From positions 1 through 56,382 of the IMG/VR virus record IMGVR_UViG_3300049919_000129: a stretch of DNA of 56,382 bases. One strand, 5' to 3'. Position 1 is the first letter of the stretch, and every line of letters starts with the position of its first letter. The notes under the pieces are model-generated. The model was not told the origin of the DNA. It saw only the letters and a list, made by a program, of their open reading frames with translations, and ran no database searches. This stretch comes from a virus (Duplodnaviria > Caudoviricetes). The position numbers were made by a program, and so were the translations under genes. Of this stretch, positions 12,440-29,402 are shown in pieces.

Positions 12440-12572
12440 TTAACTTAGCATAAAAATTTATGGAGCGAATTATGTTCGCTGTGAAACCGCCAAAATAGTT
12501 CAATTAATTAGCATTGATTTTCATAAATTTGTCATTTATATGGAAAAAGTGGATTTGAGCTATGATGAGAAT

Positions 12573-12580
12573 GATAAATA
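12573..12580 (+). promoter_or_regulatory. Late promoter GATAAATA
   Basis: Upstream of GIY-YIG/gp22/gp23. Confidence 0.7.
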
Positions 12581-12612
12581 ATAATATGAATAATCAAGGA
12601 GTTACATAACAA

Positions 12613-12644
12613 GGCATCTCGCGGGACGGCAATCCCCAGATGCT
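12613..12644 (+). promoter_or_regulatory. Leader stem-loop upstream of GIY-YIG endonuclease
   Basis: GGCATCT-CGC-GGGA-CGGCAA-TCCC-C-AGATGCT, a GC-rich hairpin in an AT-rich spacer. Confidence 0.55.
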
Positions 12645-12676
12645 CTAATTCTAAAAATTTAAACAGGAGAATCAGC

Positions 12677-15885: not shown

Positions 15886-15924
15886 ATTTGACATAGAATC
15901 GACCATATGGTAAAATGATAAATA
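15886..15924 (+). promoter_or_regulatory. Composite sigma70 plus late promoter, copy 1 of a 39-bp direct repeat
   Basis: TTGACA-N17-TAAAAT directly followed by GATAAATA; ACCATATGGT palindrome. Confidence 0.8.
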
Positions 15925-15953: not shown

Positions 15954-17417
15954 ATGAAAAATAAGATACTAGAAGTGCTTTATAAAAACGGCAGGCCGAT
16001 ATCAAGAAGATTCAATTCAGAATGGCTGCAGCATAATGAACCAGAACTCTTTAATGATATACTGTCAAATACATCATATCTAGTAGAATGTGATATTTCG
16101 TCTCGCGTACATACCGTCCTTAAGGATATAAAAGAACAGCCCGTGTGTAAAACATGCGGGACACCAACCACATATCCAAACACAGAAAGGACGGGGTTCA
16201 AAACTTACTGCAATTCTGCTTGTATGTCGAAAGACCCAAACTTATCTGCAATAATGAAGGTGAGAAAAGCAAAAACGGATCATGATGCGGCAAATGAAAA
16301 AAGAAAGGCTACGACAGTAGAAAAATATGGAGTCGAGTTCAACTCACAGCGCCCAGAAGTAAAAGAAATTTTACAAAAGTCAAAACTGGAAAAATCAAAT
16401 CCACTAGCCCTAGAAAAACTAATGGATCGTGATTGGCTGAACACCCAATATAATAAGAACAAAAGAACTGCTCTTGACATATCGCATGAGATTTTTGTGG
16501 ATTACACAACAGTAATATCATATTGTGAAAAGTTTGGATTCGAGATTAGGGCAGGCGGAAGCTCATCCCAATATGAGGAAAAAATATGCAGAATGCTGGA
16601 TTCTAATGAGATATCCTATATCCGCAGAACCAGAAAAATAATTTCACCGTATGAACTTGACATATATCTACCACAGTTTAATTTTGCCATTGAGGTTGAT
16701 GGATTATATTCGCATTCCTTTCCGAATTTTGAACGGGCTAAGGATAAGGGGTACCATTTAATGAAAACCAATATGTGCGAAAAGCTGGGAATTCACCTAA
16801 TGCATTTTACCTGCGAGCAAATATCCACCAAATGGGAAATCGTTGAGTCTATCATTTTAAACAAATGTAAAAAATCCAAAATGGTGTATGCAAGAAAATG
16901 TAATATCATTGATGTTTCACCAGAAAGGGCAACAGACTTCCTGAATAAAAACCACATACAGGGCAAGCTCGGTTCCACCATTAGACTTGGACTGGAATGC
17001 GATGGAGAATTGACTTCAATTATGACCTTTGGTAAGGCTAGATACGACGATTCTGAATACGAGCTTCTTCGATTCTGCAATAAAACAGGAGTGTCTGTGG
17101 TTGGTGGGGCCGGTAAATTATTCGCATGTTTCATAGAAAGGCATGCTCCAAAATCAGTTATGTCATTTGCAAATAAATTATGGGCGTCTGGTGCCATGTA
17201 CGCAGCACTAGGGTTTGTTCGTGAGAAAGACACGAAGATCGGATATTGCTGGACAGACAAAACGGTGACAATAAGTCGCTACAAGGCAATGAAACACAAT
17301 TTAGCATCTTGGCTACCTTCATATGACGATACCAAATCGGAAGCTGAAAACATGTTCGCGGCAAAATACCGTAGGATATGGGATTGTGGGCAGCAGGTGT
17401 GGAAATTTAGTAGGTGA
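15954..17417 (+). CDS. Hef-like putative homing endonuclease (Zn ribbon, HTH, PD-(D/E)xK/Vsr-like nuclease, GNAT-like C domain)
   Basis: CKTC...YCNSAC; ELDIYLP..AIEVDGLYSH; YARKC, NHIQG, ELLRFC, VVGGAGKL, RIWDCG. Confidence 0.75.
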   Translation: MKNKILEVLYKNGRPISRRFNSEWLQHNEPELFNDILSNTSYLVECDISSRVHTVLKDIKEQPVCKTCGTPTTYPNTERTGFKTYCNSACMSKDPNLSAIMKVRKAKTDHDAANEKRKATTVEKYGVEFNSQRPEVKEILQKSKLEKSNPLALEKLMDRDWLNTQYNKNKRTALDISHEIFVDYTTVISYCEKFGFEIRAGGSSSQYEEKICRMLDSNEISYIRRTRKIISPYELDIYLPQFNFAIEVDGLYSHSFPNFERAKDKGYHLMKTNMCEKLGIHLMHFTCEQISTKWEIVESIILNKCKKSKMVYARKCNIIDVSPERATDFLNKNHIQGKLGSTIRLGLECDGELTSIMTFGKARYDDSEYELLRFCNKTGVSVVGGAGKLFACFIERHAPKSVMSFANKLWASGAMYAALGFVREKDTKIGYCWTDKTVTISRYKAMKHNLASWLPSYDDTKSEAENMFAAKYRRIWDCGQQVWKFSR

Positions 17418-17455
17418 TTTGACAAAGAATCGACCATATGGTAAAATGATAAATA
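17417..17455 (+). promoter_or_regulatory. Composite sigma70 plus late promoter, copy 2
   Basis: 38/39 identical to 15886-15924. Confidence 0.8.
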
Positions 17456-17482: not shown

Positions 17483-18973
17483 ATGTATTCAAATGAAATA
17501 TTAGAATTGGCGGCTGCTTCAAAAGACACATCGATGATGATTAGACTGTCTTTGGATAAAATAAATCGGCAAAAAATCATAGAGGCCACTGCTTTTATGG
17601 ATTCGTTTTATCCGAAAATCCCACTGAAAATTCGGTGCATTGCAATCATACAATCGTATAATGAATCAAATTTTCCTAAGTGTAAAAACTGCGACTCTCC
17701 GGTTGGGTATGATAAAGAATATAATAATTCATTCAATACATTTTGCTCAGATAAATGCGCAAAGGACTACGGAAGACTACCAGATGATATACGAGGAAAG
17801 TTGAATGATCCAGATTGGTTATACCAAAAGCGGATACATGACCGAATGCCGTACCAAACAATCGCAGACGAGCTTGGGGTTTCTGATTACAAGGTAAAAT
17901 CTGCATGCATTGCGCTTGGAATTCCATTACTTCGATACAACGAATCCACCTCTGAGGTGTTGGTCAAACTACAGGATAAGGAATTTCTTGAGGCAGAGTA
18001 CAGCAAGGGTAAGACCATGCAGCAGATATCGGAAGAGATAAAATCATCGAAGGCGACGGTGCAAAAATCATTTATATTTCATGAGATTACAGTCAGACCA
18101 CCAAACTCATATGCGAGAAAAGTAAATAAAAGATCAAAGGAAGAGGTTGAATTGGAAGAGTATATCAAAAGTCTTGGTGTTGTGACCGAACATTCAAACA
18201 GAAAAATATTGAATGGGTTGGAAATCGATATCCTTTGTCCGGAGTTAAACATCGGATTTGAATATAACGGCATATACTCACATCTAGAAGAGAACGGTAA
18301 GGGAGCAAAATATCACATCACAAAGACGGAACTTGCTGCAGCAGCTGGGATAAAATTATTTCATATCTTTAGTGACGATTGGATTCTAAATAAAGATGTG
18401 ATGAAATCTGTAATATCTAGCAAATTGGGAAAGGCAATCACCACATTACACGCAAGAAAATGCAGCATTTCCTCACTTTCAGCGAACGATAAGAACCTCT
18501 TCCTAGACTCAAACCACATTCAAGGAAAGGATTCGTCTAGTATAAATTATGCGCTATCGTTTGATGGTATGCCGGTTGCAATAATGACTTTTGGGAAGTC
18601 TAGGTACAATAAATCCACAGAATGGGAACTCATTCGATTTGCGTGTAAAAAGAACACCTCGGTGGTGGGCGGATTTTCCAAGTTGTTATGCGAATTTCGT
18701 AAGAATAATTCCGGTAGCATCGTTTCTTATGCGGATCGTTCCATAAGTGATGGCGGAGTATATTCAAAAAATGGGTTTGCCTTAACTAGAGTAAACCCAC
18801 CAAACTACAAATATGTCAACCTAAACAAAGGGTTAAAGAGATTGCATAGGGCAGCGTTCATGAAGGGTAAGATATCTGATGATGGGGACACTCGATCCGA
18901 GAGGGAGATAATGCTTTCTCGTGGATATAAGCGGATATGGGATTGCGGCACGCTCACCTATATTATGCAGTAA
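17483..18973 (+). CDS. Second Hef-like putative homing endonuclease
   Basis: CKNC...FCSDKC; EIDIL.P..GFEYNGIYSH; HARKC, NHIQG, ELIRFA, VVGGFSKL, SYADR, RIWDCG. Confidence 0.75.
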   Translation: MYSNEILELAAASKDTSMMIRLSLDKINRQKIIEATAFMDSFYPKIPLKIRCIAIIQSYNESNFPKCKNCDSPVGYDKEYNNSFNTFCSDKCAKDYGRLPDDIRGKLNDPDWLYQKRIHDRMPYQTIADELGVSDYKVKSACIALGIPLLRYNESTSEVLVKLQDKEFLEAEYSKGKTMQQISEEIKSSKATVQKSFIFHEITVRPPNSYARKVNKRSKEEVELEEYIKSLGVVTEHSNRKILNGLEIDILCPELNIGFEYNGIYSHLEENGKGAKYHITKTELAAAAGIKLFHIFSDDWILNKDVMKSVISSKLGKAITTLHARKCSISSLSANDKNLFLDSNHIQGKDSSSINYALSFDGMPVAIMTFGKSRYNKSTEWELIRFACKKNTSVVGGFSKLLCEFRKNNSGSIVSYADRSISDGGVYSKNGFALTRVNPPNYKYVNLNKGLKRLHRAAFMKGKISDDGDTRSEREIMLSRGYKRIWDCGTLTYIMQ

Positions 18974-24964: not shown

Positions 24965-25386
24965 GTAACTTAAAAGAACTTATTGAGGCTCAACTCGTAG
25001 AGGCATTGCAACCTCTTAGTATGACAAAAGAGAATTTCGCCAATAAATACCACGAATTAAAAAGATCAACCACTTTGAAGTCACTCGATATAGCAGATGA
25101 TCTTCAAAGCCACGCAGAAAGAGAGCACGGTAAAGAATTCGCCAATGATCTTTATACACATGAACATCGTGTAAATATGGGCGGTAAGGACGAATATCAT
25201 CATCCAGAACTTGTTGCATGGAGAAAAAAGCATAATATCGTTATGCCATATTACGAAAAGAAGTATGGTGCATCAGTGACGACGCCACTTGCATCACAAC
25301 CGAAACCTAAATCCATAGTAGATAAATACGCGGATAAATCGAATTCTCCCCTAGCTACAATTATTAGAGCGTTTAGAGGTAAGTAA
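24961..25386 (+). CDS. Hypothetical protein, candidate internal head protein
   Basis: Leader MSNLKELIEAQLVE; His/Lys-rich; late operon. Confidence 0.5.
   Translation: MSNLKELIEAQLVEALQPLSMTKENFANKYHELKRSTTLKSLDIADDLQSHAEREHGKEFANDLYTHEHRVNMGGKDEYHHPELVAWRKKHNIVMPYYEKKYGASVTTPLASQPKPKSIVDKYADKSNSPLATIIRAFRGK
25321..25328 (+). promoter_or_regulatory. Possible internal late promoter for gp3
   Basis: GATAAATA about 60 nt upstream of gp3. Confidence 0.45.
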
Positions 25387-25877
25387 TGCCATGCGATAAC
25401 GAAACCGGTTCTGTCTTTATGGCAGACGGAAGTGAGGTGTCTTATGATGGACTACCGTCAATCTCATTCCAGTGTAGCTTTAGCAAGCTTCCCAATACAA
25501 TGTTTTTTCTCCAAAGATGGAATGTACCAGGGGTTTCTGTTGGTAAGGTCACTAGACCAACACCATTCCTTGACATAGATGAAATCGGCGAAAAGATGAT
25601 ATTTGAGCAGTTCACCATAGAATTTTTGATCGATAAACAGCTCAAGAATTACAAGGAAATATTTGATTGGATGAAGAGAATCACGGTAAACGCATCTCAG
25701 AGAGATGAGGTAGGTGATGCTAGTATCATTATAGCAGGATCAAAGATGGTTAGATTCATCGATGTCTGGCCTGCTTCCCTAAGTGGGATGGAATTCAGCA
25801 CAAACGCGACTAATGTCGATTACCTAAAATGCACTGCCACGTTTAATTACGACTGGTATGAATTTACAAATGTTTAA
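25386..25877 (+). CDS. 3: Tail completion/tube terminator gp3
   Basis: FF.Q..NVPGVS, FLID..LKNYKEIFDW, F.D.WP.SLSG.EF, ATF.Y motifs; synteny before uvsY. Confidence 0.85.
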   Translation: MPCDNETGSVFMADGSEVSYDGLPSISFQCSFSKLPNTMFFLQRWNVPGVSVGKVTRPTPFLDIDEIGEKMIFEQFTIEFLIDKQLKNYKEIFDWMKRITVNASQRDEVGDASIIIAGSKMVRFIDVWPASLSGMEFSTNATNVDYLKCTATFNYDWYEFTNV

Positions 25878-25885
25878 GGAATATT

Positions 25886-26725
25886 ATGTACTCATTTAAA
25901 GACTATATGCTTTACCCAATTCTGAACGAGGATTTGCATCCAGAGTTGAAAGATAAATCAGATAACCTACCACAATTCTTAAAAAAGAAAAAGGAACTAG
26001 AGAAGAGGGGAGAGGACACTGGTCTTTCTGGGGAAGCACATGCAGGATCGTCTAGAGTTTATATGCCACATTCCGGAACGCATAAAATTATGCTGGATGG
26101 TAAGGAAGCACATGTTCCTATCGGCACTAAATTTGCGAAGAAATTTGCTCTTGATGCACATACCGGTGATGACAGATCGCTAGGTGCTCAACAAAATGAG
26201 GCGGAGTCGGATGCTGCACTACATCACGGAATATTCAGAAAGCATGGCGATGGATCATACACAACTAATCCTCATGGGGTTGTTGCACCTGTAGTTGATC
26301 ATCACGACGAGCATGAGCATATCACTAGCGTAAGATGCGATAAGTTTTCTGCTGCTAAGTTTAAGGAATGTACGGTAAATAAAGATTATCCAAAAGGACT
26401 ATCGTATAAGCATTTCCATGGTGCTTTGATGCGAGAACATGATCTTTCTAATGGAAAGAGCTTCTCACCAGCGTCCTATGGTGCTAAGTCGCATGAAGAG
26501 TTGGATAAGGCGGCTGAACATCCACTCACCGAAAAATTCCTTAATCACATGCATGACACTGGTCATCATCCAGGTGATGTTCGTCCTGCTAATTTAGGTA
26601 TCCTTCATCATCCACATACTGGAGAGAAACATGTAGCGTTACTTGATGCTGGTTATGATCATAACGTGCAGGCCAGTTACAATCGTGCTAGAACCAACCA
26701 GATGAAGTCCAACCTGCGCTGGTAA
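25886..26725 (+). CDS. Protein kinase-like fold protein with capsid-targeting-like leader
   Basis: MYSFKDY...ILNE leader; GSSRVY, K.A, QNEAE, catalytic loop GDVRPANLG, LLDAG (DFG-like). Confidence 0.65.
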   Translation: MYSFKDYMLYPILNEDLHPELKDKSDNLPQFLKKKKELEKRGEDTGLSGEAHAGSSRVYMPHSGTHKIMLDGKEAHVPIGTKFAKKFALDAHTGDDRSLGAQQNEAESDAALHHGIFRKHGDGSYTTNPHGVVAPVVDHHDEHEHITSVRCDKFSAAKFKECTVNKDYPKGLSYKHFHGALMREHDLSNGKSFSPASYGAKSHEELDKAAEHPLTEKFLNHMHDTGHHPGDVRPANLGILHHPHTGEKHVALLDAGYDHNVQASYNRARTNQMKSNLRW

Positions 26726-26871
26726 TTTTCTCTCAAGAATCATTCTGAATTTAGCGAAGTTACTTAAGTACACCCTTCGGGTGGTCGCTTCGCTCCAGAT
26801 TCTGGTTTCTCTTTTTTTGTTTTTTAAGTTTTATTTAAGTTATTCTAGAATCGCAGTTATATGCTGGGTGT

Positions 26872-26916
26872 TCGATGGATACAATTTTCCCATCACAGGA
26901 AAATTGTATCCATCGA
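26872..26916. repeat. Perfect 19-bp inverted repeat
   Basis: TCGATGGATACAATTTTCC-CATCACA-GGAAAATTGTATCCATCGA. Confidence 0.95.
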
Positions 26917-27369
26917 GGGGTGATGCTGTAACGTCCCGACGTATTACAAACTGAATCAGATACCTGTGATAAGCAGGGTGAGCGCGGCTAGCGGTTGTTC
27001 TCGAATTACATCTGGTTTCTCCCATTGAAGGGCCAGCGGAACCATTCTTAGACGATTTCAGTCATTTCTAAGCGGTTTGAGGTTGCAAACATTCTAAAAC
27101 AGAGCCTCCCAGATTGCCTATCTGGCTGGTGTCAATCCACCAGTCATCCTTTGCTATGCATGATATATACAGGATAGTTCATGCATTTTGATACTTACGG
27201 CGACCTCTCCACACCTGCCTCTGCCAGTGGTTGTCCGTTCCATAGAACTCTAGTCCTGCTCGAATTGTGTTACCTCGTATATTAATTATCATGGCTACAT
27301 CTTTACATCGGATGAACGCTTTGGTGAAACTCGCTTTTATACGCTTTGGTGCCGCACGATTGTATCGGT

Positions 27370-27377
27370 TATTTATC
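27370..27377 (-). promoter_or_regulatory. Late promoter GATAAATA pointing into the non-coding region
   Basis: TATTTATC on plus strand. Confidence 0.7.
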
Positions 27378-27411
27378 TAGCTGGATACAGGTGAAAATTT
27401 AACTACCGCCG

Positions 27412-27440
27412 ATCATATCGGAAAAAATACTTGTTGTCAA
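27412..27440 (-). promoter_or_regulatory. sigma70-type promoter pointing into the non-coding region
   Basis: TTGACA-N17-TATGAT on minus strand. Confidence 0.75.
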
Positions 27441-27459
27441 CCCCTCAAGGAGAAGAAAC

Positions 27460-27906
27460 GTGAGCTACACATTTGAAACGATGGTCGATGAATGGAAAAT
27501 CGATGCAACCATCAATGAAACCCAACTATCGCAAGAGATTACTAGAACCCCTATGCTACATGCGAAATACCTTGAAATCTACATGTATGCCAAGGCTAAG
27601 CTGATTTCTGCAGAGAAGAAGTTTAACACGACTAAGTGGATCAAGAGAAAATATTTTAGGGGTGAACTCGAAAAGCATGAACTCGTTGAAAGAGGCTGGA
27701 GTCAATGGGGTGGATTGAAACCGAGCAATTCCGAGTTAAACGATCTCTTCGAATCCGACCGAGACCTCAACGAACTAGACGAAAAGGTCAAGTATTACAA
27801 ATCCTTCGTGTCCGGTGTGGAATTCGTGCTCAAGAACATTTCCCAAAGGGATTGGGGTATAAAAACTCTGCTAGAACATCAGAAATTTATGGCCGGGGCC
27901 GGTTGA
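27460..27906 (+). CDS. uvsY: Recombination mediator UvsY
   Basis: W..D..I, P.LHAKYL, KYFRG, I..RDWGIK...KF.AG; GTG start with AAGGAG. Confidence 0.88.
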   Translation: MSYTFETMVDEWKIDATINETQLSQEITRTPMLHAKYLEIYMYAKAKLISAEKKFNTTKWIKRKYFRGELEKHELVERGWSQWGGLKPSNSELNDLFESDRDLNELDEKVKYYKSFVSGVEFVLKNISQRDWGIKTLLEHQKFMAGAG

Positions 27907-29402
27907 TGGACACCATTAAGTTATACATTCAGGATGAAGTTTACTTCAAGGTCAAATGCGATGCTGGAATTGGCTTCGAGCTTAGTGATCATTTCGCATA
28001 CCTTGTACCAAATGCAAAGTTTCATCCGATGTGCAAGTCCGGGCGATGGGACGGGAAGATCAAAATGTACAATCTTTCAAAGTCCATCATCCCAAGAGGA
28101 ATCCTGCCCGAACTCGAAGACTTCTGCAAAACGTATGATTATAAACTAGAACATGCCTATGATCAGGGGACAACAAAAACTCAGATTTCTGACAAGGAAC
28201 TGCATGATTTCATTGATGAAATAAATCCACATTCCGGTGGGGTGAAGTTGACGATTAGGGACTATCAATTCGATGCGATAAAGAAGTCCATTGAAAATAT
28301 GCGAGCTACGTGTGAGTCTCCTACGGGCAGCGGAAAGTCTCTGATCATATACATCCTGATTCGATGGATGGAACGGCTTGGAAAAAAGGTTCTTTTGATC
28401 TGCCCAACAACAGGCTTGGTTGAACAGATGTATAAAGATTTTTCCGACTACAGTAGCGAAAATGGCTGGGTCGTGCCAGATAATGTGCATCGCATTTATT
28501 CAGGTAAGGAAAAGATTTCAACCCATTCCACCGTTATCAGTACGTGGCAGAGTTTGAATTCTAAGTTGATCCCGCCCGATTTCTTCGATCCGTTTCAATG
28601 TGTGTTTGTGGATGAATGCCACCTAGCCAAGGGATCGGTTTTGCAGAAGATTCTTTCTCAGTGTAAGAATGCTGAGTATCGTAATGGATTCACTGGTTCC
28701 CTATCTGACGTAGAAGTTGATCGAATCACTATTAAAGGTATGCTCGGCCCAATCATCAGAGTCGCCTCAACTAGAGCTTTAATCGATAAAGGTCAGTTAT
28801 CGGATATCCGGATAAAGGTTCTGATGCTTAATTATTCAAAGGAAGTAAAAAAGGCAACCTCAAAGTTTTCATACCCAGAGGAAATTGATTTCCTTGTATC
28901 AAACGAAAAACGGAATCGATTCATTAGGAATCTTGCTGGTGCTATGGTTGGTAACACTTTAGTGCTCACCACGCTAGTCGAAAAGCACGGTCAAGTCATA
29001 TACGATATGTTGAAAGAGAAATATCCTGATAGGCCGATATATTTCATACATGGTGGGGTCGATGTTGATGACAGAGAAGATATTCGAGCGTTGATGGAGC
29101 AAGGTTCCGATGTCATCGTGGTTGGCTCGTCTGCCACTGTTGCGACTGGGACAAACATCAAAAATATTCGTAATGTCATCGCTGCAGCACCATCCAAATC
29201 ATTGGTCAGGGTACTGCAATCAATCGGCAGAGGTTTGCGTAAAATGGAAGGCAAAACACACTTTACGTGGTATGACATCGCAGACAAGATAAATCCATCT
29301 AAGAGCAACATGAATTTTGCATATGCTCATGCGATTGAGCGTTTGAAAATTTACGTTGATCAGGAGTTTGATTACAACATAACTGAGGTTGATTTTGAAT
29401 GA
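27906..29402 (+). CDS. uvsW: SF2 DNA helicase UvsW
   Basis: WDGKIK, RDYQ, SPTGSGKS, DECH, QSIGRGLR; start ATG 27906. Confidence 0.95.
   Translation: MDTIKLYIQDEVYFKVKCDAGIGFELSDHFAYLVPNAKFHPMCKSGRWDGKIKMYNLSKSIIPRGILPELEDFCKTYDYKLEHAYDQGTTKTQISDKELHDFIDEINPHSGGVKLTIRDYQFDAIKKSIENMRATCESPTGSGKSLIIYILIRWMERLGKKVLLICPTTGLVEQMYKDFSDYSSENGWVVPDNVHRIYSGKEKISTHSTVISTWQSLNSKLIPPDFFDPFQCVFVDECHLAKGSVLQKILSQCKNAEYRNGFTGSLSDVEVDRITIKGMLGPIIRVASTRALIDKGQLSDIRIKVLMLNYSKEVKKATSKFSYPEEIDFLVSNEKRNRFIRNLAGAMVGNTLVLTTLVEKHGQVIYDMLKEKYPDRPIYFIHGGVDVDDREDIRALMEQGSDVIVVGSSATVATGTNIKNIRNVIAAAPSKSLVRVLQSIGRGLRKMEGKTHFTWYDIADKINPSKSNMNFAYAHAIERLKIYVDQEFDYNITEVDFE

Follow-up and report, generated by a model that had tools for sequence, protein, structure and literature searches.

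Genes, promoters and terminator around the gap

The window analysed here, a stretch of 56,382 nucleotides taken as a whole, derives from an uncultured freshwater T4-like phage. Its longest ORF-poor interval, a gap at positions 26726-27459, is bounded on the right by uvsY and on the left by a 279-aa ORF, and UvsW is encoded next door (Table 1). The sequence-only reading of this DNA had singled it out as the only long ORF-free gap, and rightly so: the longest ORF inside it has 61 aa, and the second-largest intergenic gap in the window measures 237 nt. The name "gp3-uvsY interval" used in that reading is inaccurate if taken to mean immediate neighbours, since the 279-aa gene separates the gp3-like gene from the gap. 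The AT skew of the gap is that of minus-strand genes, and ARAGORN found no tRNA or tmRNA. The gap divides late tail genes from early/late recombination genes.

Table 1 Features of the gap upstream of uvsY and of its flanks
Feature	Position	Strand	Remarks
gp3-like gene	25386-25877		left of the 279-aa gene
279-aa ORF	25886-26725	+	left flank of the gap; no known family
Branched GC-rich hairpins with UUCG loop, then T-run	26753-26806	+	predicted intrinsic terminator of the 279-aa gene
AT-rich tract	26806-26851		12.5-15% GC; T-run of the plus-strand terminator plus spacer
Hairpin E	26916-26872	-	terminal, 19-20 bp; perfect 19-nt arms 26872-26890/26898-26916
H12' helix	26939-26935/26918-26913	-	
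Block F	26949-26939	-	conserved
H11 hairpin	26977-26963	-	3 of 4 pairs changed on both sides; GCAA cap in L083 on the minus strand
Block D	26996-26980	-	near-invariant
H8/H9 helices	27044-27013	-	H9 invariant
H7 hairpin	27072-27047	-	5 of 6 pairs changed on both sides
Blocks B and C with hairpins	27078-27153	-	block B (invariant) with hairpin H4 27143-27126; H5 27125-27109; block C with H6 27108-27079
H3 hairpin	27156-27186	-	8-bp stem; insertion specific to the window's lineage
H1 helix	27236-27233/27204-27201	-	encloses invariant 24-nt block A (27209-27232)
H0 hairpin	27248-27237	-	core start
5' leader	27251-27405	-	not conserved; 41% identity to the L083 leader
25-nt tandem repeat	27316-27365		in the leader
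Short leader hairpin	27361-27389		
Late-promoter-like motif GATAAATA	27370-27377	-	inferred second start ~27363
Sigma70-type promoter TTGACA-17-TATGAT	27412-27440	-	11 of 12 matches; inferred start ~27405
uvsY	27460/27481-27906	+	Pfam PF11056

Two promoter motifs point into the gap from its right end. The near-consensus minus-strand sigma70 promoter that had been recognised by eye is borne out by its match to the consensus, is the best of six promoter-like sites in 26000-28200 and is directed leftward, away from uvsY. A metagenomic relative, L083, carries TTGACT-17-TAAGAT at the same distance from its own uvsY start, and 13 of 18 related loci have a minus-strand TTGACA no more than 171 nt upstream of uvsY, compared with about one expected. 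The second motif, GATAAATA, occurs 12 times in the window (2.8 expected; none of 100 shuffles reached 12), and 11 of these copies sit 26-149 nt upstream of a co-oriented ORF start, which together make the label "phage late promoter" given to it previously a reasonable one. The copy in the gap is the exception, having no co-oriented ORF within 4.3 kb, and the motif is absent from the minus strand of L083. A scan of 26000-28200 found no plus-strand sigma70-like site between 26726 and 27459. In the leader, which has a GC content of 39% (38% over the first 60 nt past the inferred start), run X5 is ~93% identical to the window; the 11-nt direct repeat reported near the 5' end is present there and belongs to the 25-nt tandem pair.

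At the opposite end of the gap, the predicted terminator of the 279-aa gene was recognised by inspection of the sequence and by folding, and a simple terminator scan did not list the site. The GC content of the AT-rich tract falls below the 1st percentile (25% GC) of the window's 40-nt windows, and its sequence is not conserved, with 59 nt swapped for 69 other letters in run X2. What had been taken for a separate A-rich tract at ~26806-26845 is therefore better described as the T-run and AT-rich spacer after these plus-strand hairpins.

A conserved core and its helices

About 380 nt of the gap (26868-27250), referred to below as the core, is common to the window and L083, where it occupies the same gp3-uvsY site. 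The transcript of ~600-650 nt envisaged earlier thus has a conserved part of only ~380 nt, the 155 nt at the 5' end being 41% identical to L083. Within the core, the window and L083 share exact runs of 29, 24, 14 and 13 nt, compared with 52-65% nucleotide identity in the flanking genes, and the layout is one of invariant 24-29-nt blocks parted by hairpins that differ in sequence yet still pair. In most relatives the gp3-uvsY interval is 77-375 nt long and lacks the core, with a GC content of 24-34%; the leftward promoter motif is kept across this wider clade (13 of 18 loci) and the core is not.

L083 was the only carrier of the core among 110 related loci searched with nhmmer, 55 loci searched with a covariance model and three whole related phage records. 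The model (R1, 76 positions) scored 104.8 and 99.2 bits on the window and L083 copies and gave no further match in the 55 other loci or the three records. A third lineage is represented solely by an accidental ORF, P0013, and relatives of UvsY at 61-67% identity (P0002-P0008) mark further lineages. Four freshwater runs contain nearly identical variants; nine runs are listed with the stretch, none recorded as RNA, and the four compared are represented by 151-nt low-depth contigs that cover it partially. Neither the gap with its flanks nor the L083 interval had a blastn match in 50,697 records of cultured phages. In IMG/VR, UvsY and the 279-aa protein as single queries gave no match, the best 80 of 598 UvsW relatives (all ≤44% identity) were without the element, and a scan with a UvsY alignment yielded 14 further loci, none of which carried it. 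The metagenome contig collection was covered by one protein-guided scan. Conserved-block pattern scans of IMG/VR returned 4, 1 and 0 matches (L113-L117), which were dismissed as chance, since nhmmer aligned a block of at most 23 nt and neighbouring genes were not homologous; a single match among GTDB genome contigs, on a Paenibacillus contig, was likewise attributed to chance.

Covarying helices were sought in the gp3-uvsY intervals and were found in the comparison with L083. Among 68 pairs defined by hand in 14 helices on the minus strand, 41 show no change, 21 have both partners substituted and remain paired, four changed on one side to G-U and two are broken, counts that are small because they come from two full-length sequences, the window and L083. 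A shuffle control on this two-row alignment (136/500) was uninformative. H1 has three pairs with both partners changed, and one more compensatory change in this helix can be deduced from the Met/Trp codons of P0013. In H8, two pairs changed on both sides and two more became minus-strand G-U pairs in L083; in the region of hairpin E and H12', two adjacent pairs are compensated. The stretch of blocks B and C, which contains the 29-nt and 14-nt exact matches to L083, is aligned such that all 37 cells pair, compared with 35-48% when the partners are slid; H5 within it varies in both sequence and length and keeps its pairing; read on the minus strand, the L083 version includes a G-U pair and has GAAA as its loop. 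H3 is not present in L083. Within the population, run X5 has two compensatory pairs in H3 (G27158A with C27184T and A27160C with T27182G), and seven of the nine listed differences in its 151-nt contig (10 in total) lie in or beside H3, while blocks B and C are free of listed differences. One unlisted difference in the X5 contig bearing A27203G could compensate for that change.

The helices listed from the sequence by eye are indeed there, namely the 19-nt inverted repeat, ATGCATGA/TCATGCAT, CTGGTG/CACCAG, CCAGAT/ATCTGG, CTTAGA/TCTAAG and CCTG/CAGG. TGTAA/TTACA is a partial exception, being present in the window, not kept in L083 and affected by an indel in a near relative. Several further ideas were considered and dropped for want of support: a tetraloop-receptor pair, a CsrA-type sponge and a kissing contact between the invariant H4 and H9 loops, with 4-5 possible pairs. 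The leader might also pair over a long range with block D or hairpin E, but this idea was set aside as well, the 8-13-nt matches being at chance level.

Strand and coding potential

All four G-U pairs, a count biased by the hand-picking of helices on the minus strand, fall on that strand and become A-C mismatches if the plus strand is read, and in L083 the 4-nt loops of H0, H5 and H11 read UUCG, GAAA and GCAA on the minus strand. Folding energy is modestly better than that of shuffled sequences and singles out no strand: z-scores on the minus and plus strands were -3.2 and -2.7 for the whole gap (20 shuffles), -1.8 and -4.1 for the window core (100 shuffles) and -2.0 and -2.3 for the L083 core. 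Segment by segment, most inter-block segments were no more stable than shuffles, and H5 alone stood out. An RNA of the plus strand, regulating in cis as a structured 5' leader of uvsY-uvsW or as a 3' extension of the late tail-gene transcript, would fit the lower plus-strand z of the window core and the lack of a plus-strand sigma70-type promoter between core and uvsY in the window. It would also fit the variants A27203G (X5) and A26931G (X3), each of which makes an A-C mismatch if the minus strand is read and a G-U pair if the plus strand is; the majority of helices, being Watson-Crick, suit either strand. We nevertheless consider it improbable, given the four A-C mismatches, the failure of H8 in L083, three tetraloops that are canonical on the minus strand only, a plus-strand terminator ahead of the core in both phages and the leftward direction of both promoter motifs in the window. 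Moreover, in L083 the core is separated from the uvsY start by a late-promoter-like CATAAATA and a ribosome-binding site, and it would therefore lie outside that uvsY mRNA. We give equally little credence to an element acting as DNA or on transcription, such as a stack of terminators or insulators, a set of regulator sites, or single-stranded DNA hairpins used in replication, recombination or packaging. Its attractions are that hairpin E looks like a terminator on both L083 strands, that the region parts late tail genes from early/late recombination genes, that inverted repeats also form hairpins in single-stranded DNA and that TGTCAA doublets in relatives could be operator sites. But G-U pairs and UUCG/GNRA loops characterise RNA and not DNA, invariant blocks of 24-29 nt among about a dozen covarying helices are unlike terminators or operators, and most relatives do with 77-375 nt and no core. 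Far less probable still is a minus-strand gene for a small protein that evolves fast or is decaying, with an intact frame of 99 aa in L083 and of 145 aa in the P0013 contig and a broken one in the window. It would explain why long open frames (99, 109 and 145 aa) lie over the core in these two relatives, the first and last spanning it, and why the L083 and P0013 frames are 70% identical over 86 residues. However, P0013 aligns to L083 in two different frames, in one of which L083 has stops; owing to a 1-nt length difference in H5, the frame that runs through the invariant blocks in the window is not that of L083; and the window core has stops in all six frames while its 24-29-nt blocks stay identical. 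Single-nucleotide indels also occur among near relatives, with two 1-nt deletions in X3 and a 1-nt insertion in X4 inside the 61-aa and 57-aa ORFs, and X5 has lost the ATG of the 37-aa ORF. None of the four ORFs tested matched Pfam, P0013 was the sole related match among 1.84 billion representative proteins (otherwise only three unrelated repetitive proteins were returned), and no relatives of the plus-strand ORF were found. Judging from these alignments, reading frames are not conserved across the core, and the three available lineages already point to no single frame staying open.

A candidate RNA gene and comparison with known systems

In Rfam 15, no family matched any part of the window at its gathering score, including ROOL, GOLLD, OLE, HEARO, group I/II introns, RNase P, tmRNA, 6S and riboswitches, an outcome in line with the new RNA that had been proposed. 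At E ≤10, the region 26500-27700 gave 11 matches, all far below gathering score (best 21.7 bits, compared with 95): six microRNA models on hairpin E, one IS128 sRNA overlapping E and four in flanking genes. The best match in the gap had E = 0.28 and was a hairpin-only microRNA. In the papers searched, no report of an RNA gene beside uvsY was found. The earlier proposal had been a large non-coding RNA or an RNA-primed origin; a conserved, non-coding and structured element with minus-strand early-type and late-type promoters and no Rfam match stands, the non-coding RNA being the more probable of the two.

From the comparison of these sequences, the most likely product of the gap is a folded non-coding RNA of ~400-550 bases that has not been described before, and on balance the gap probably holds a stand-alone, lineage-specific gene for such a structured RNA. 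We infer its transcription, strand and ends as follows. Transcription would first start at ~27405, from the host-type sigma70 promoter 20 nt upstream of uvsY, and a second, probably late, start at ~27363 would be provided by GATAAATA. The transcript would head away from uvsY through a leader of ~155 nt into the ~380-nt core (27250-26868), folding there as a chain of about a dozen short helices with invariant single-stranded or junction blocks between them. Hairpin E is likely its 3' end: in L083, where this hairpin is terminator-like on both strands, it is followed by a U-run and has a terminator-like score on the minus strand, while the 3' end in the window is uncertain because no U-run follows the hairpin. 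Ending most likely at or just past hairpin E, the RNA would be ~500-540 nt long here and ~425 nt in L083. As no gene follows on the minus strand, it would be neither an mRNA nor the leader of a downstream gene, and it would work at the RNA level, its fold probably serving as a scaffold or decoy for a protein or another nucleic acid. The element occupies the gp3-uvsY slot, which is hypervariable, and lies downstream of a leftward promoter already present in the wider clade; with this setting it would resemble an accessory RNA gene that a single sublineage acquired. More tentatively, it could be the founding member of a new class of large phage RNAs, expressed early and late and acquired as an accessory gene, which might build a higher-order particle of the ROOL/GOLLD kind or work as a ColE1-like folded primer.

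An unlikely, if more substantial, alternative is that the locus is a replication origin, at which an early leftward transcript of ~430-540 nt would serve as a primer in the manner of ColE1 RNA II. The transcript's 3' part would form a persistent hybrid in the AT-rich tract beyond hairpin E and prime leading-strand synthesis, and the neighbouring UvsW would later remove the hybrid. The gene-less leftward sigma70-type promoter, which 13 of 18 related loci keep ahead of uvsY, speaks for it, as do the high AT content of the gp3-uvsY interval in core-less relatives (24-34% GC), the tract of 12.5-15% GC directly downstream of hairpin E and the replacement of this tract in X2, a lack of conservation expected for an unwinding element. 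ColE1 RNA II is a folded transcript of ~500 nt, made from a sigma70 promoter and ending at an AT-rich region, whose function would depend on structure upstream of its 3' end; the uvsY-side locus has a promoter and a folded predicted unit of ~430-540 nt followed by an AT-rich tract, with a similar distance of ~550 nt from promoter to tract. It differs in lacking an RNA I-type antisense promoter (none was found on the plus strand in the 5' part) and any sequence similarity, in belonging to a phage genome and not a plasmid, and in the late promoter that also feeds the predicted transcript, which is unexpected where an origin should shut off late. In T4, origins prime with promoter transcripts, oriE depends on an early promoter, oriF lies at uvsY and UvsW unwinds origin R-loops (PMC3016281). 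The likeness to oriF/oriG consists in a predicted promoter transcript by uvsY/uvsW, an AT-rich tract downstream and UvsW as a neighbour (PMC3016281). However, oriF is described there as a unit of ~100 bp, in which a MotA-dependent middle promoter is immediately followed by an A+T-rich unwinding element and the R-loop is independent of specific sequence (PMC3016281), which would leave a constrained core of 380 nt unexplained. The uvsY-side promoter is instead of sigma70 type and divergent from uvsY, and the conserved, folded core separates it from the AT-rich tract; no compact unit of the T4 kind was found, the sole extreme AT tract lying ~550 nt downstream. The analogy with T4 ori(uvsY) drawn earlier is weak on this account. 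Furthermore, the AT-rich tract doubles as the T-run of the plus-strand terminator, GC skew has no local extremum at the gap beyond the effect of gene orientation and so gives no origin signal there, and most of the clade lacks the core and presumably still replicates. We know of no origin mapped in this clade; a ColE1-like primer, if real, would give T4-like phages their first structured-RNA origin. Irrespective of the core, the gene-less, clade-wide leftward promoter upstream of uvsY is a candidate origin or antisense control point outside the T4 model.

As a structured RNA gene, the locus can be compared with ROOL and GOLLD, which are linked to phages and prophages. To our knowledge, lytic phages have so far yielded few large structured RNAs, and what ROOL and GOLLD do has yet to be solved. 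The predicted RNA resembles the large ornate RNAs ROOL, GOLLD and OLE (PMC12286853) in being a phage-borne, multi-helix RNA gene of several hundred nt without an ORF and in having invariant junctions between variable, covarying hairpins. In contrast to these RNAs, whose Rfam 15 models do not match the core even at E ≤10, the uvsY-side RNA has a smaller core (~330-380 nt), has been found in three lineages of one freshwater T4-like subclade only and has recognisable early and late promoters. A compact, promoter-defined example from a T4-like phage would be easy to synthesise, to probe chemically and to study by cryo-EM, and it would indicate that T4-like genomes can acquire RNA genes, and not just protein-coding accessory genes, in their variable slots.

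Setting of the gap and searches for relatives

The gap element is real and conserved, almost certainly non-coding and structured, and most likely represents a new family of phage ncRNAs, with three lineages so far. It lies in a virus record of 56,382 nt (estimated 31% complete, 42% GC) from a distant T4-like virus. Among 209 cultured phages with a matching UvsY, mainly cyanophages and Sinorhizobium phages, none exceeds 33% identity to the UvsY of this virus. The runs in which near-identical DNA occurs carry freshwater or freshwater sediment metagenome labels. The name gp3, used in the sequence-only reading, is the annotation that cyanophage records give to the gene beside uvsY. Everything which that reading listed is present, including the long gap (734 nt with ORFs of at most 61 aa, where the second largest in the window has 237 nt), the hairpins and the inverted repeat with its perfect 19-nt arms. 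Two of its details changed: the 'A-rich tract' consists of the T-run that follows the 279-aa gene's terminator on the plus strand, plus an AT-rich spacer, and the TGTAA/TTACA helix is not conserved, helix H12' taking its place in the model.

Features of the window and positions of the motifs discussed
Feature	Position (nt)	Strand	Remarks
gp3-like tail gene	25386-25877	+	PHROG 45 'tail tube'; upstream side of the gap
279-aa gene	25886-26725	+	no known family; between gp3-like gene and gap
Conserved core	27250-26868		about 1927-1590 in L083
Tandem direct repeat	27316-27365		25 nt, copies 76% identical
Late-promoter-like motif in gap	27377-27370	-	GATAAATA
Sigma70-type promoter	27440-27412	-	TTGACA-17-TATGAT, 11/12 matches
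uvsY	27460 or 27481-27906	+	Pfam PF11056, E 5e-23; downstream of gap
uvsW	27906-29402	+	UvsW_N plus helicase domains; downstream of uvsY
All GATAAATA copies	4538, 12573, 15917, 17448, 24542, 25321, 39307, 51369, 54259, 55675; 20168(-), 27377(-)
Second largest gap	12440-12676		237 nt, with the GATAAATA copy at 12573
Repeated ~30-nt stretch	15892-15924, 17423-17455	+	ends in GATAAATA

Rfam 15 gave no match at the gathering score over the whole window; at E ≤10, matches in the gap were to microRNA models and to one sRNA model on the long hairpin (best E 0.28), and flanking genes also matched small-RNA models. No tRNA or tmRNA was found, and blastn against 50,697 phage records returned no match. 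UvsW relatives in IMG/VR reached at most 44% identity, and a UvsY protein search yielded 11 relatives, 54-67% identical. Alignment-guided scans gave 16 loci from metagenome contigs and 14 further from IMG/VR, with gp3 and uvsY adjacent and separated by 77-375 nt, or 1086 nt in one. DNA similar to the gap was present only in L083, a metagenomic locus (UvsY 63% identical), where it is colinear and occupies the same slot. No further core copy was detected by nhmmer in 110 other loci, or by a 76-position covariance model in 55 other loci and three whole related records (two at least 99% complete); pattern scans of IMG/VR and GTDB genome contigs produced chance matches only. The third lineage emerged indirectly: the accidental ORF of 99 aa that overlies the L083 core had a single relative, P0013 (145-aa ORF, 529-nt contig). 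Contigs of 151 nt, 90-98% identical, were found in four freshwater runs. Close relatives are rare.

Conserved core and compensatory changes

The cores of the window and L083 have exact runs of 29, 24, 14 and 13 nt in common, compared with nucleotide identities of 65% for uvsY, 59% for gp3, 52% for uvsW and 41% for the 155-nt leader between promoter and core. Between the invariant blocks, hairpins stand at matching places and differ in sequence and length. Fourteen helices were defined by hand on the minus strand and their pair changes counted by script: among 68 pair positions, 41 are invariant, 21 changed on both sides with pairing kept (H0 1, H1 3, H5 3, H7 5, H8 2, H11 3, H12' 2, E 2), 4 changed on one side to G-U and 2 are broken. 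In a MAFFT alignment of invariant blocks B-C, 37/37 cells pair, versus 35-48% with partners slid; a shuffle control of these blocks (136/500) has two rows only and is hence uninformative.

Variation within the window's own population and in the third lineage also bears on the helices. In freshwater run X5, G27158A accompanies C27184T and A27160C accompanies T27182G, which makes two compensatory pairs in H3, an 8-bp hairpin stem without counterpart in L083; 7 of the 9 listed differences (of 10) in the 151-nt X5 contig fall in or beside H3, and none of those listed in blocks B and C. The innermost H1 pair is U-A in L083 and C-G in P0013, as implied by the latter's unambiguous Met and Trp codons. 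H12' is retained in L083, and in its model the variants at 26922, 26929 and 26931 of run X3 fall in a loop; the remaining X3 variant, a deletion at 26913, costs H12' its terminal pair and takes away a base that also serves at the foot of hairpin E.

Thermodynamics by itself is unremarkable. Whole-gap folding gave z = -3.2 (minus) and -2.7 (plus) over 20 shuffles, core folding over 100 shuffles gave -1.8 (minus) and -4.1 (plus) for the window and -2.0 and -2.3 for L083, and segment-wise only H5 folded better than shuffles. The tandem repeat, which includes an 11-mer listed earlier, lies in the non-conserved leader and is absent from L083.

Promoter motifs around uvsY

Both promoters proposed earlier for the minus strand hold up as motifs. 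GATAAATA occurs 12 times in the window versus 2.8 expected (12 reached in 0/100 shuffles), and 11 of the copies have a co-oriented ORF starting 26-149 nt downstream; the gap copy alone has no ORF after it. Its enrichment and its position, 26-58 nt ahead of most ORFs that it precedes, make it look like this phage's late promoter. It frequently takes the form GATAAATAC(T); the T4 form TATAAATA is not enriched in the window (2 versus 2.5 expected). The repeated ~30-nt stretches, each preceding one of two adjacent genes (15954-17417 and 17483-18973), look like a duplicated promoter cassette.

On the minus strand of L083, TTGACT-17-TAAGAT lies 17 nt from the uvsY start (20 nt in the window). Minus-strand TTGACA within 171 nt upstream of uvsY was found in 13 of 18 clade loci (19 copies, often a doublet 9-12 nt apart), where about one locus is expected and 2000 shuffles gave at most 5, and a -10-like hexamer follows at 16-17 nt in the 11 loci scanned. 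In most relatives this leftward promoter faces just 80-250 nt of very AT-rich DNA (24-34% GC) and then the end of gp3; being clade-wide, the motif is older than the core. Six loci (L084, L085, L087, L088, L089 and L091) carry, 90-125 nt upstream of uvsY, the doublet TGTCAA-N3-6-TGTCAA, which amounts to a pair of TTGACA hexamers facing left at a spacing of 9-12 nt. It stands back to back with a uvsY promoter of the TTGACA-17-TATAAT type that points rightward, and the arrangement could represent two overlapping divergent promoters or an operator.

Strand, ends and competing explanations

We lean towards a new family of structured ncRNA, encoded by a stand-alone gene and acting as RNA, with expression, strand, ends and function all inferred. 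That it is instead a decaying small gene is very improbable. Stops interrupt all six frames in the window, and H5 differs in length by 1 nt, so that the flanking invariant blocks are in different frames in the window and L083. Aligned with L083, P0013 matches frame -1 over residues 21-55 and 122-145 (with stops in L083) and frame -2 over 56-121; near relatives carry single-base indels at 26913, 26929 and 27003, and X5 has lost the ATG of a 37-aa ORF. Four ORFs had no Pfam match, the 109-aa plus-strand ORF of L083 had no relatives, and an exhaustive representative protein search with P0013 returned three repetitive, unrelated proteins only. For the open frames of L083 and P0013, the best reading is that they are accidents of a GC-normal sequence.

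The functional strand is probably minus. Most helices are Watson-Crick and compatible with either strand. In favour of minus, 4/4 G-U pairs would become A-C mismatches on plus, and H8 would fail in L083, although the G-U count is biased by helices having been picked on minus. The 4-nt loops of H0, H5 and H11 in L083 read UUCG, GAAA and GCAA on minus (CGAA, UUUC and UUGC on plus), both promoter motifs point leftward, and the AT skew of the gap resembles that of minus-strand genes. A DNA-level or terminator/insulator element and a plus-strand uvsY leader each have little likelihood; the leader draws on the better plus-strand z-score of the window and on A27203G (X5) and A26931G (X3), tolerated as G-U on plus only, although the X5 contig has one unlisted difference that might offset its variant, and H12' leaves 26931 unpaired. 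For uvsY, the window shows no obvious promoter on the plus strand. In L083 the sequence after hairpin E reads CAUUUUU, and the hairpin is scored as a minus-strand terminator, which predicts an RNA of ~425 nt. Hairpin E of the window (19-20 bp) has no U-run after it; its RNA may stop at this point, with a length of ~540 nt from the early start or ~495 nt from the late start, or may run past E into the AT-rich tract. The earlier choice between a large ncRNA and an RNA-primed origin is narrowed, both readings remaining. The less probable of them, and the main rival, is a folded primer of the ColE1 kind that would feed an origin in the tract with 12.5-15% GC just past E: the clade-wide leftward promoter without a gene, the AT-rich intervals and the uvsY/uvsW neighbourhood suit it, whereas a late promoter is odd for an origin, an RNA I-type promoter was not seen, and the T4 oriF/oriG model, described as ~100 bp with an unwinding element beside the promoter and no sequence-specific RNA (PMC3016281), leaves the core unexplained.

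The gp3-uvsY slot itself is hypervariable, as shown by the core, the 279-aa gene of the window and other inserts, and different lineages carry different ones. The 1086-nt interval of L092 (1429-2515) differs in content: it bears no resemblance to the core, and its stop-to-stop frames reach 104 codons. The 279-aa ORF is histidine-rich, without a Pfam or PHROG family; among the loci collected, only L091 has a relative, a piece with 35% identity that lies upstream of gp3, and the ORF therefore looks like a mobile accessory gene of the same variable region. In L083 (1952-2066), an ATG at 1972, after CATAAATA and AGGAG, opens a frame that continues into uvsY and would lengthen its N-terminus by 31 residues; the leftward promoter of L083 sits inside this putative extension.
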